A DNA stretch of 64,000 nt, from NCBI GenBank assembly GCA_951406725.2, contig OX597824.1, positions 44,454,001 to 44,518,000 of the forward strand. Reading direction: 5' to 3'. The position numbers and the translations under genes are program-made. Below, piece by piece: positions 21,571 through 26,428 of the stretch; position 1 is the first letter of the stretch; every line of letters begins with the position of its first letter. The notes beneath the pieces are model-generated. The model was given only the letters and a program-made list of their open reading frames with translations. It did not search any database and was not told the origin of the DNA. The stretch is from Octopus vulgaris. Taxonomy: Eukaryota.

Positions 21571-21758
21571 AGCATTAACAATATTGCTTTCACCAAATAT
21601 ATATATATATATACGGACGTTAAACGATGATGATGATATATATATATATATATATATATTTGGTGAAAGCAATATTGTTAATGCTCTCATACTATGAGTT
21701 GAGGTGATGTCTTCTAGTACCTCCAAATTTAATATACAATTATTCATAATTGTAGTGT

Positions 21759-21849
21759 CCTACGCTGATGAGAAAAATAGTTGGGTAAGACATAATTTTC
21801 TAATTCTTATGCTTTCCTAAAACTTAATTTCGAAACGTACGTCCGTAGG
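21759..21849 (+). ncRNA. Type I hammerhead ribozyme, copy 1
   Basis: Stem I cctacg/cgtagg; core CTGATGA (21765-21771); 60-nt interrupted stem II (gaaa/tttc, agtt/aact, aag/ctt, cataa/ttatg); GAAA (21832-21835); palindromic stem III acgtacgt; GUC cleavage after 21843. Confidence 0.9.
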
Positions 21850-22335
21850 TGACTTAATATTGTATGATTGTCGTCATTTCTTTCTCTCTTACCTGCGTTT
21901 GCCTTCTAAGTGCTGTGGTTTTACTGAAATCTCCCTTTTAGTAGAAAGAATAGCTATAACTCTTTGACTGCTATTTCTAAACTCGGTGTGTGGTGAGGCA
22001 AATTGTTGCTAAACCCTTAATCACTTAGTATTACTTAAACTTTCCTCGAATGGGGCTTTTACATGCCGGAATCTACTTGGTGAAATTGATGATTATTCCA
22101 AATTAATTAATTTCACCCTATATTATTACTGATAACCATATTTCATCCCAGTAAATGACCACAACATCTTGGCCTGGCAGCACGCTGGTGGGAGGGGGTT
22201 GGTGACACAAACTTTCATTCACACTTTGAATTTGGTGATACTGGTAACGGCTTTAGCTCACTCTGATACTATGAGTTGAGGTGATGTCTTCTAGTACCTC
22301 CAAATTTAATATACAATTATTCATAATTGTAGTGT

Positions 22336-22426
22336 CCTACGCTGATGAGAAAAATAGTTGGGTAAGACATAATTATCTAATTCTTATGCTTTCCTAAAAC
22401 TTAATTTCGAAACGTATGTCCGTAGG
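22336..22426 (+). ncRNA. Type I hammerhead ribozyme, copy 2
   Basis: Same fold: CTGATGA 22342-22348, GAAA 22409-22412, loop III gtat instead of gtac, GUC cleavage after 22420. Confidence 0.88.
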
Positions 22427-22608
22427 TGACTTAATATTGTATGATTGTCGTCATTTCTTTCTCTCTTACCTGCGTTTGCCTTCTAAGTGCTGTGGTTTTA
22501 CTGAGATCTCCCTTTTAGTAGAAAGAATAGCTATAACTCTTTGACTGCTATTTCTAAACTCGGTGTGTGGTGAGGCAAATCGTTGCTAAACCCTTAATCA
22601 CTTAGTAT

Positions 22609-22648
<40 letters not shown>

Positions 22649-24690
22649 GTTAAAAGAAAAGTCATAGTCATCACTCACAAGTGAGCATGGCTTGGTAGCA
22701 TGAACTATGCTTTTACTAATTCGTTTAGGCACCCAAGTAGTCATGAACAGACATATACGAAGCATTCAGTGAAATAATGGAATATCCAACAAAATTTCAA
22801 AAATTACATTTTTTATTTCAAACATATATTTAAAACTTCAGCTTTATCCATGCAAAACAAAAAAAATAAAATTTCATTCATACTCTTTCACACTGAAATT
22901 TAAGATGGCTGTTCAGTAAAAGACAAGTAAGGGATGGGCATGGAGGATTCTAAACGTGGAGACAAATAGCCATTTGATAATTAAGTTTGTTTGGCGTAAG
23001 TATGTGATGAACTTTTATCCTGTTTTCTATTTTGCAGGTTCCTTTTATCTGGTTTTTTTTTAGATGTGTTGTGAAGTTACATTAATTTTACTTAAAAAAT
23101 ATGCAGTTTCCAATCAATGTTTACACTTTCACACTCTCATAATCAAATTTATAAACCAGCTATATTATAAGTGCAAAACCAATTATCATTCTCTGACCGG
23201 CCATAGCATTCAACCTTCTAAGTATTACTGCTCTAATGCTCTAGAGTGTGTTTCTTTTCGTATTTATTTAATAGTAGCTTAAAAGTCTACATGGGGAGCA
23301 GACTTTTAAGCTAGCTCATGTGGAAGGCTAATTGGGCTTGCAGCCCCAAACTAAAGAGAGCTAAATAGCACGACTACAATACGTCTATAATTACTATATG
23401 CCCTGGTGGTGTTTGATCAGAAATTAAGGACAAATGAGAATTAATTCTGTAATGCAATCATTCTACTGCTCCAGTACCAAGTCGAATTCCAACTGTTGGC
23501 CAATTTGTCCCAATGTTCTTATCTTAATGTAAAATTAATGAAGTGAATATCATTTATCTCCCTCTTGACCTCTGACATCATCTGACAAATGTCACCAAGA
23601 TGGTGTGAATCAACCCAAGCTTTAGCTGTTAGAAATAGCAATCCAAATGCTTTTAAATCAGATCCCAATGCTGGATGGTCAAGAACCAAATGAAGGTCAG
23701 ATTTTCAATCCTGAGATCATCCTGATTCCAAAATGGTATAATATGTCTATGTAGAGCAAATGTAGACTGAGATATAGGGGACCCAGATGGATAGACAGAA
23801 TTTTGCTTTTATTATTATTATTATCATCATCATTATATACACATACACACATACACTCGATTAACTTCTTTCAACTTCCATCTACCAAATCCACTCACAA
23901 AGTTTTGGTTGGCCCAAAGCTGTAATAGAAGACTCTTGGCTAACGTACCATGCTGTGGGACTGAACCTGGAACCATGTAGTAGGGAAGAAAACTTCTTAC
24001 CACACAGCCATGCCTGTAAATAATTCGCTAACTCATAAAATATGCTAGGAAAACTTTAAATGGCTTTTGTGCCAAATTTGTAAAATGTGGAATATTCCTT
24101 TCCTCCACTGAATGTGTCATATATTCTGATCAAGTTATTCCTTGTGTATTTTAAGCTTCCAGACAGTTTGTGTGCAAACAAATATTGGAGGTCCAATAAT
24201 AGGCTACTAATCAAATGAAAATCAAGTTATCATATCAAGTATCACATATCTAAATGATCTAACTTATCTGCAAAAAGGATAAATAAATAAAAAACAAACA
24301 AATCTGGACAATAGTGTTAGTGCAGTGCCTCAACATCCACAAATGGCTTTTATTCTTTTACTGGTTTTAGTCATTAGACTGCAGCCATGCTAGGACACCA
24401 TCCCATCTTGAAGGGTTTAGTTGAACACATCAACCCCAGAACTTATTATCTTTTCCAAGTCTGGTACTTAGTCTATCAGTCTTTTTTGCTAAGTTACAGG
24501 GAAGTAAAATAGACCAACTCTGGTTGTTGAGGCATGGAAGACAAACACAAAACAGAGACTTATACACTACAACTGGTGTGTGTGTGTGTGAGTGTAAATT
24601 GATGGCTCATCGTAATTACGATGTACCATCGATTTGTACTACCAGCCAACCTGTGTTGACTGGAAAAACGTAAGAGAAATTGTCTCTTTT

Positions 24691-24784
24691 ATCAGCTTGC
24701 AGCACCACTGTCTGGTTTCTGTGACTGAAGAGGAAATAACTACTCTGAAATGCTTGCATCTCACAGGTGGTGCTGTGAGCTGAT
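24691..24784 (+). ncRNA. Extended type I hammerhead ribozyme (second family)
   Basis: Distal stem I atcagcttgcagcaccac/gtggtgctgtgagctgat (18 bp, 2 G-U); 10-nt bulge tgtctggttt; proximal stem ctgtga/tcacag; core CTGAAGA 24725-24731; weak stem II gga/tct; GAAA 24747-24750; stem III atgc-tt-gcat; AUC cleavage after 24760. Confidence 0.85.
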
Positions 24785-24915
24785 TTGGGTATATTTACAC
24801 CATATGTCTACAGCAAGAAATTTTCTCCATGACAAAACACAGTGAAAGGCTTGTTTACAAGTTCAAACATGCTTTTAGCATATTCATATTGTTCACTGTT
24901 TAACGCTCTCACATC

Positions 24916-24953
<38 letters not shown>

Positions 24954-24958
24954 TAAAT

Positions 24959-25550
24959 ATCATCATCATCATTTAACATCCATTGTCCATTCTGGCATAG
25001 ACAGTTTGACCATAGATGGCTAGCTGCACCAGATTCCAGTCTGGCATGATTTTTATGGTTGAATGCCCTCCCTAATGCTAACCACTTTACAGAGTGTGCT
25101 TTTATGTGGCACCGCATGGGCGATTTTTCATGGCACTGCATGGGCACTTTTACATGGTGCTGCATGGGCGTTTTAATGTGAAACTGCATGGGCACTTTTA
25201 TGTGACACCGCTATGAGTGCTTTTCACCACCAGGGGGACTGGTCTTAACACTTCTGCTGTAGAGTACGGGTCTTCTTGAGTATAGCAAGGTGCCAGACAT
25301 CTCAGTCCTTTGTCATCTCACCTGAAAGATCCAGCATCCTGAAGTTTATTCCATGTCTTCCTGGGTCTCTCCCTTCCCTTTGTTCCATCTACTTTGAGAG
25401 ATCAGTACTTCTTTATGGAGCTGCCAGCATCCATTCGCATCACATGACCAAACCAGCACAGTCTTCTCTCTTGCATACAGCAACTAATTCCTCTTGAAAC
25501 ACTAGCACTCTGGCGAACATGTACACTTACATTACACATCTAGCAGAGTA
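24959..25550 (-). mobile_element. Old RTE LINE 3' fragment with an internal 24-bp tandem array (about 25096-25211)
   Basis: (ATC)n tail plus tttaacatccattgtcc like 33108-33150. ccatgtcttcctgggtctc reads RPRKTW on the minus strand. Confidence 0.7.
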
Positions 25551-25599
25551 TACTCATACATCATCATCATTTAATATCCATTGTCTATGCTACATATAT

Positions 25600-26428
25600 A
25601 AGCAATGTAGCTAGTTGTAAAATCTCAAGAAAAGATGAAAGTAGTAACTATACTAACAAGTAAAGTTAATCGCCACATTGTTACAACTAGTTTAGCCCCA
25701 GTTGGTTATTGGTGCAGCATTGAACCCTGTACATATATATTGTCACCAGAGGAGTGAACCTTTACCATCCTCCAGCAAACAATAGGATCATGTGACTGAC
25801 TTAGTTTCAAGCTAGTTTGCTCATCTTCAGTAGTGAACACCTGATTGCCAAAGAGGTGGCCAAAATCCGCACCAGCCAGCAATATATTGTAAACAAAGTG
25901 ACCATCAGTCACTGATTTGCAACAAGCAAAGTAGCTAGTTGTAAAATTTCAAGAAGAGATGAGAGTAGTAACTATACTAACAAGTAAAGTTAAATTTATG
26001 TCTTTATTGCCCACAGGGGGCTAAACATAGATGGGACAAACAAGGAAAGACAAAGGGATTAAGTCGATTACATTGACCCAGGTGCAGTTAATCAACCCCG
26101 AAAGGATGAAAAGCAAAGTCAACCTCGGTGGAATTTGAACTCAGAACATAATGGCAGATGAAATACTGCTAAGCATTTTGCCCGGTGTGCTAACGTTTCT
26201 GCCAGCTTGCTGCTGTAAAGTTAATTGCTACATCAAAATGGCTGTTCTATGTTACTACTAGTTTAACCCCAGGCAGATCATTTGTCAGCTGGTTATTAGT
26301 GCAGCACTGCACACTGTACATATGCATTACCAGCAGGGGAGCAAACCTCTACCATCCTCCAGCAGACAACAGGATCACGAGACTGACTCAGTTTCAAGCT
26401 AGTTTGCTCATCTTTAGTCACAAATACC
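25600..26428 (-). mobile_element. Diverged tandem dimer (period about 324 bp) of a third hammerhead-bearing element; second unit interrupted by a SINE
   Basis: Units start aagcaa(t/a)gtagctagttgtaaaat at 25600 and 25924. Minus-strand motif CT(G/A)AAGA-t-gagc aaacta gctt-GAAA-ct(a/g)agtcag-TC at 25788-25837 and 26375-26423. Confidence 0.75.
25994..26214 (-). mobile_element. SINE family A inserted in the hammerhead dimer
   Basis: TSD gtaaagttaa at 25984-25993 and 26215-26224. Confidence 0.88.

Follow-up and report, generated by a model that had tools for sequence, protein, structure and literature searches.

In a stretch of 64,000 nucleotides (nt) of the Octopus vulgaris genome (GenBank assembly GCA_951406725.2, contig OX597824.1, positions 44,454,001 to 44,518,000 of the forward strand; hereafter the window), five hammerhead ribozyme motifs lie close together in the DNA-repair gene XRCC3. 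A first-pass annotation of the letters had counted the three motifs on the plus strand, antisense to XRCC3, as intact and the two on the minus strand as disabled, and had explained this by purifying selection against cutting of the XRCC3 pre-mRNA. The locus raises the question of what decides the state of an intronic hammerhead, and of what kind of element carries it here. We conclude that the five motifs very probably belong to three retroelement insertions, likely copied by Penelope-like enzymes, and that insertion age and CpG mutation, rather than the orientation within XRCC3, account for their state.

Five hammerheads in three insertions

The exon at 41701-41838 (minus strand) was 98% identical to a protein named at source Octopus vulgaris XRCC3-like, and a Rad51 domain was found in its product. 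Since minus-strand XRCC3 exons lie at 27190-27104 and 5768-5652 (Table 1), the region 21689-26428 with all five motifs is within one 21-kb intron whose sense strand is minus, as had been proposed. Contigs of runs X1 and X7 span 27105-27201 and then go on elsewhere, which is the pattern expected of a spliced exon.

A descriptor scan recovered every motif of the first-pass annotation as a type-I hammerhead, with C3 at +21765 and +22342 (A1 and A2, family A), +24725 (family B), and -25830 and -26417 (family C). On reversed control sequence the strict descriptor gave no match in 264 kb, none in 557 kb and one in 1.4 Mb. Rfam reported no hammerhead at gathering score in the window and none at E<=10 in the region. 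The topology stem I - CUGANGA - stem II - GAAA - stem III - UH - stem I was present in A1, A2 and the three family majorities. It counts against the assignment that in short folds the full three-stem hammerhead was the minimum-energy structure for no window motif. The five are genuine type-I hammerhead ribozyme motifs, whose self-cleavage is a prediction from their sequence. No significant BLASTN similarity was found between families A, B and C (best E=0.029 over 28 nt), and the description of three unrelated families is upheld.

The G10.1-C11.1 pair, termed highly conserved in the relevant passage of PMC4209133, and the invariant core were present in A1 and A2 and broken in B and both C motifs. 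The change C11.1>U is common to B and both C motifs. B, previously taken as intact, therefore has a G10.1-U11.1 closing pair, and its fourth stem-II pair is broken relative to the family; its stem I begins at 24719, not at 24691. The minus-strand lesions were as described (three stem-I mismatches beside the core at -25830, and CUAAAGA, the G5A change, at -26417), while the C11.1>U of both motifs had been missed. A G-U pair at 10.1-11.1 reduces hammerhead activity, and G5A abolishes it.

The five motifs are not independent of one another; they form three insertions. The two A motifs, with predicted cut sites after 21843 and after 22420, are in successive units of a 99%-identical tandem (spacing 577 nt). 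The two C motifs are also in successive units, and their spacing of 587 nt equals one 356-nt unit plus 231 nt of a very high-copy short repeat with its target duplication, which we take to be a short interspersed nuclear element (SINE). In run X15 a contig joint, 25983-26215, skips 231 nt at the SINE site. A perfect inverted copy of target flank (about 30 nt) and (TA)n adjoins the 5' end of A, and it meets the element at a short near-match to the element's own upstream sequence, which suggests a template switch, presumably at insertion.

Age and CpG mutation at the locus

Divergence at non-CpG sites is 2.2% for A, 10.0% for B and 10.5% for C, and at CpG sites it is 2.7%, 32% and 27%. A is young, and B and C are equally old. 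The greater age of the minus-strand family, put forward as an alternative in the first-pass annotation, thus holds in comparison with A and does not hold in comparison with B. Under neutrality a 13-nt core would be intact with a probability of 0.74 in A, 0.14 in B and 0.16 in C, and on these values the observed state (both A motifs intact; B and both C motifs broken) has a probability of about 0.33 and is the likeliest single outcome. Other copies of the three families showed intact cores in 25/28 (A), 5/28 (B) and 9/28 (C) cases. G5>A, the change in one C motif of the window, occurred in five of 56 other copies (2/28 B and 3/28 C).

Together the two C motifs of the window have 12 changes (5 and 7), of which 9 affect CpG positions, and equal or greater damage was found in 26/28 and 15/28 other C copies, respectively. 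All three families have a CpG at C11.1-G12, which by hand count was mutated in 38 of the 82 genome-wide matches of the C pattern and 41 of the 71 matches of the B pattern. These matches, taken at 10% divergence, would correspond to roughly 500 copies of each of these two families. In Octopus bimaculoides, methylated CpGs are described in part of PMC9476566 as concentrated in gene bodies and low on transposons overall.

Two points weigh against this account. The lesions number 5 and 7 in the C motifs and 2 in B (the hammerhead has 10 CpG positions in C and 2 in B), and the B and C copies used for comparison, being the top BLAST matches of those in the window, may have lesions in common with them. 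On the whole, damage in the window appears to track insertion age and CpG mutation, not strand. The strand bias of decay dissolves on inspection, because what is compared is a young antisense insertion with two old insertions, one antisense and one sense, and damage is present in each of the old pair.

Hammerhead orientation in gene spans

Dynein and myosin gene spans were located by Pfam models, giving 1.4 Mb from 21 spans, and were searched with the strict descriptor and by homology with a library of 40 hammerhead seeds. Internal exons were well confirmed in three of five dynein spans by cross-gene BLASTP after repeat filtering, before which this exon mapping was swamped by repeats. Intron T/A skew was tried as a stand-in for gene orientation and rejected, since the signal was too faint (0.016-0.037, with a standard deviation of 0.02-0.04 per 10 kb).

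With the strict descriptor, intact motifs numbered 19, of which 12 were sense and 7 were antisense (1 match in the control). The homology search yielded 67 motifs; intact were 14/34 in sense and 9/33 in antisense orientation (Fisher P-value = 0.31). The main count leaves out two groups, 5 motifs from a family in whose relatives the core is missing, and 14 from a self-complementary family that scores on both strands. Without them, 9/23 sense and 8/25 antisense motifs were intact (P-value = 0.76, odds ratio 1.36, 95% confidence interval 0.36-5.3). An equal frequency of intact cores in the two orientations is the outcome that the first-pass annotation had itself named as refuting its inference, and this 1.4-Mb sample gave it. 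The intact proportions were 5/16 sense and 3/15 antisense when the two least certain myosin spans were left out, and 4/15 sense and 3/18 antisense among copies at least 7% diverged, age being measured here as divergence to the nearest seed, not to a consensus. CpG mutation was again prominent, with 21 of 45 core lesions in gene-span motifs at C11.1-G12.

 One myosin span holds an intact sense hammerhead (L295) related to C (21% flank divergence), with compensatory changes along stem I. A repeat family at several loci, including L108 and L202, gives U3-A8 hammerhead matches on the two strands within 7-21 nt of each other, and may be a hairpin element rather than a ribozyme.

Several features of the sample speak against the conclusion that orientation is without effect. 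The odds ratio fell below 1, though not significantly, among copies less than 7% diverged (intact 3/6 sense, 4/6 antisense) and among motifs without an opposite-strand partner (3/15 sense, 4/17 antisense). The sample is small and may include nested genes, inverted pairs in it are non-independent, expression of several of the dyneins is probably restricted to certain tissues, and few internal exons were confirmed in two of the dynein and two of the myosin spans.

That selection against cutting of host pre-mRNA removes or disables sense intronic hammerheads is, on these data, quite unlikely. In its favour, both sense motifs of the window are damaged, and the three motifs without a core lesion (A1, A2 and one at 32743) are all antisense. 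Yet the window has just one sense insertion, the equally old antisense B is damaged as well, and two broken C motifs are what neutrality predicts, given the intact chance stated above for each. The preprint on retrozymes (bioRxiv 10.64898/2026.07.22.740005) finds them depleted in Xenopus introns, in passages that hold no test of orientation. In the octopus gene spans strictly intact motifs were more numerous in sense than in antisense orientation, a significant sense deficit appeared in no subset, and inverted arms place intact motifs on both strands in 2/28 A loci. The confidence interval does extend down to an odds ratio of 0.36. Strong exclusion of intact sense hammerheads is incompatible with the gene-span counts, while a sense deficit of up to about threefold would be compatible with them. 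In the weakest form still tenable, selection would cause a modest deficit, and only among those tandem copies in broadly expressed genes that are dimer-competent.

Long introns probably tolerate a sense hammerhead, because motifs of this kind would cut slowly and splicing survives slow cleavage of an intron. According to passages of PMC4209133 and PMC11167929, respectively, a minimal Penelope-element hammerhead had no activity as a monomer and low activity as a dimer in vitro, and an anole Penelope hammerhead required protein for cutting. Fast ribozyme cleavage in an intron can abort splicing, as happened for the ribozyme of hepatitis delta virus (HDV), whereas cutting by the slower hammerhead permitted it (both second-hand, in part of PMC2995048). 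Against slow cutting stands a canonical coral retrozyme, for which a passage of PMC7229834 gives efficient cutting during transcription. Neutral decay with toleration of sense copies is the reading retained below.

Three families of likely retrozymes

Families A, B and C are each dispersed in the genome, with one hammerhead per unit and unit sizes of 577, 348 and 356 nt. The units have a GC content of 0.37-0.47 and contain no open reading frame (ORF), the longest stop-free frames being 48, 66 and 93 amino acids (aa). Folded as circles, they gave z-scores of -6.3, -7.7 and -13.0 against 30 shuffles each, and the linear A monomer gave -6.6, with 0/100 shuffles as stable. A and C are tandem within the window, and copies longer than one unit made up 13/28 in B and 11/28 in C.

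The 3' end of A fell at unit position 332-348 or 441-452 in 27/28 loci, with variable 5' ends, and 3' ends were clustered in B and C also. A microsatellite adjoins the 3' end in 27/28 A loci, where it is (TA)n, and in 20/28 C loci, but in only 3/28 B loci. Inverted pieces were seen in 14/28 A, 16/28 B and 12/28 C loci. The insertions show the features of mobilisation by Penelope elements, namely 3' ends fixed at two sites, 5' ends that vary, pieces in inverted orientation and, for A, AT-rich (TA)n targets; fixed 3' ends in pairs and AT-rich targets are given as the Penelope signature in part of PMC11167929. Being dispersed, structured and marked by this footprint, the three families are likely non-LTR retrozymes (LTR, long terminal repeat), non-coding tandem units that Penelope-like enzymes would copy.

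In the relevant part of PMC7229834, non-LTR retrozymes are defined by short units in tandem that bear a type-I hammerhead, and the preprint derives these elements from Penelope elements. With the metazoan non-LTR retrozymes, as they appear in passages of Cervera and de la Pena (2020, PMC7229834) and of the preprint by Li, Clavereau and Pollet (2026), the octopus families share non-coding tandem units with one type-I hammerhead each, a GC content under 50%, a strongly self-paired predicted circle, and dispersed monomers and dimers. B and C fall inside the quoted range of 150-450 bp, whereas A lies above it and has a long stem II; the octopus copies have one to two units with inversions and not long arrays. 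Self-cleavage and circular RNA have been demonstrated for coral retrozymes and are hypothetical in the octopus families. No data set on record as RNA was listed as containing the octopus elements, and contigs of four runs, which carry no information on RNA ends, strand or level, speak neither for nor against their expression. In comparison with the hammerheads of Penelope terminal repeats (pLTRs), covered in part by Cervera and de la Pena (2014, PMC4209133) and Frangieh et al. (2024, PMC11167929), the octopus units have no reverse transcriptase (RT) or GIY-YIG ORF in or beside them, and the stem III of minimal pLTR hammerheads is shorter than that of B and C.

It is very unlikely, in our estimate, that A, B and C are instead 5'-truncated pLTRs of autonomous Penelope-like elements and not self-standing units. 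Truncated Penelope copies would leave the same footprint, and most metazoan hammerheads of this type are ascribed to them in a passage of PMC4209133. The C motif at 26417 has an extra nucleotide between A9 and G10.1, matching the extra nucleotide before stem II that the same source describes for Penelope hammerheads, together with opposite-strand pairs. Motif spacing speaks against pLTRs: the 3' half of the A motif, in its intact form, has 544 exact matches in the genome, and among the first 100 of these, seven same-strand pairs, counted by eye, are 583-584 nt apart, one short unit, and none are 2-6 kb apart. The many B and C copies longer than one unit and the lack of an ORF in the units also disagree with truncated pLTRs. 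With two Penelope-like families as queries and flanks of 1.5 kb, no RT or GIY-YIG ORF was found in or upstream of A, B or C copies; only one A insertion adjoins a Penelope-like locus, the sole exception among 60 loci. The flanks viewed were limited to this length, which leaves some room for pLTRs. It weighs against copying by Penelope-like enzymes that A, B and C share no terminal repeat with the 60 loci of these two families.

As non-LTR retrozymes, the families could spread as follows. A transcript of more than one unit would be cut by its own hammerheads into a monomer, which may circularise. A Penelope-like RT/GIY-YIG protein would nick AT-rich DNA, and reverse transcription would begin at one of two internal sites, yielding one to two units. 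After insertion the motif would decay neutrally, the C11.1-G12 CpG first.

The gene spans hold 12-13 families and 29-36 detectable insertions per Mb, which together with the copies of the A 3' half bears out the proposal of a broad population of ribozyme-bearing non-autonomous retroelements in this genome. The clustering of the window is above average, with a Poisson probability of 0.0004-0.0008 for three insertions in 4.7 kb, but unremarkable genome-wide, as about 220-450 windows of 4.7 kb with at least three insertions are expected in 2.8 Gb (Poisson). Two-family clusters occurred 2-4 times in the gene-span sample, and three-family clusters were absent from it.

Features of the window and neighbouring elements

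Table 1. Positions of the insertions, hammerheads and XRCC3 exons in the window.
Feature	Position	Strand	Remarks
XRCC3 exon, aa 97-135	5652..5768	minus	Downstream boundary of host intron; protein mapped back
Perfect inverted duplication, target flank and (TA)n	arms 21567-21613, 21643-21689		5' junction of A
Family A insertion, likely retrozyme	21684..22612	+	About 1.6 tandem units of 577-nt non-coding unit; young; ends in (TA)n
Hammerhead A1	21759..21849	+	Stem I CCUACG/CGUAGG, CUGAUGA, long stem II, palindromic stem III; intact
Hammerhead A2	22336..22426	+	Core intact; one CpG change in stem-III palindrome
Family B insertion	24613..24885	+	Single partial copy of 348-nt unit; old
Hammerhead B	24719..24766	+	C11.1>U; fourth stem-II pair broken; N17 at 24760
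Family C insertion	25591..26429	minus	About 1.7 tandem units of 356-nt unit; old; SINE-interrupted
Hammerhead C (C3 at 25830)	25788..25836	minus	C11.1>U; three core-adjacent stem-I mismatches; one stem-III change
Very high-copy short repeat in C (presumed SINE)	25996..26216		Target duplication of about 10 nt; basis: depth
Hammerhead C (C3 at 26417)	26375..26423	minus	G5A; C11.1>U; stem I paired with three G-U
XRCC3 exon, aa 66-94	27104..27190	minus	Upstream boundary of host intron; protein mapped back
XRCC3 exon	41835-41695	minus	Protein mapped back onto window

A 5'-truncated Penelope-like element with an inverted terminal piece lies at 31479-32891 (+), by a 2-kb (TA)n tract, and has a GIY-YIG ORF at 31556-32098. 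The family to which it belongs is very young: over 152 aa, about 115 of the 150 copies scored show 100% identity. Frames open for 753 aa are frequent in this family, and a relative has an RT domain. The 3' repeat of this element contains a sixth hammerhead-like motif at 32738-32778 (+), absent from the first-pass annotation, which is a U3-A8 core variant with an atypical stem III and is antisense in the neighbouring XRCC3 intron. Another young Penelope-like family with GIY-YIG (L130-L159) has open frames of up to about 1300 aa elsewhere in the genome, and in the strict scan no hammerhead belonging to it came up within 1.5 kb.

Also within XRCC3 introns, at 18570-20753, 33719-35206 and 27888-28781, are presumably two remnants of LINE-type (long interspersed nuclear element) reverse transcriptases and a mariner-like transposase frame. 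A U6 small nuclear RNA-like copy at 36256-36344 (+) scores slightly over the Rfam gathering score and is probably a pseudogene.

Implications

Rfam misses these hammerheads here, and the main text of a recent article that annotates O. vulgaris Penelope-like elements (PMC13282606), supplements aside, contains none of the words hammerhead, ribozyme and retrozyme in the parts consulted. Our literature search, with subscription papers and supplements outside it, returned no paper on octopus hammerheads or on the orientation of intronic hammerheads.

Introns might even serve retrozymes as a launch pad instead of a trap, although we consider this unlikely. A young sense tandem like C would be cut twice from the host pre-mRNA, freeing an exact 356-nt monomer that could circularise without a promoter of its own, while tethering of the exons would preserve splicing. 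As there are about 30 insertions per Mb of gene span, and several genes hold intact sense motifs, transcription by the host would then be a main source of circular retrozyme RNA.

The surprising part of the earlier interpretation, strand-specific selection on ribozymes in a DNA-repair gene, fails, and three further likely retrozyme families in a retrozyme-rich genome remain. This first small orientation-aware count suggests that intact sense hammerheads persist in introns, and their persistence is relevant to the question of whether host pre-mRNA is cut by genomic hammerheads at all.

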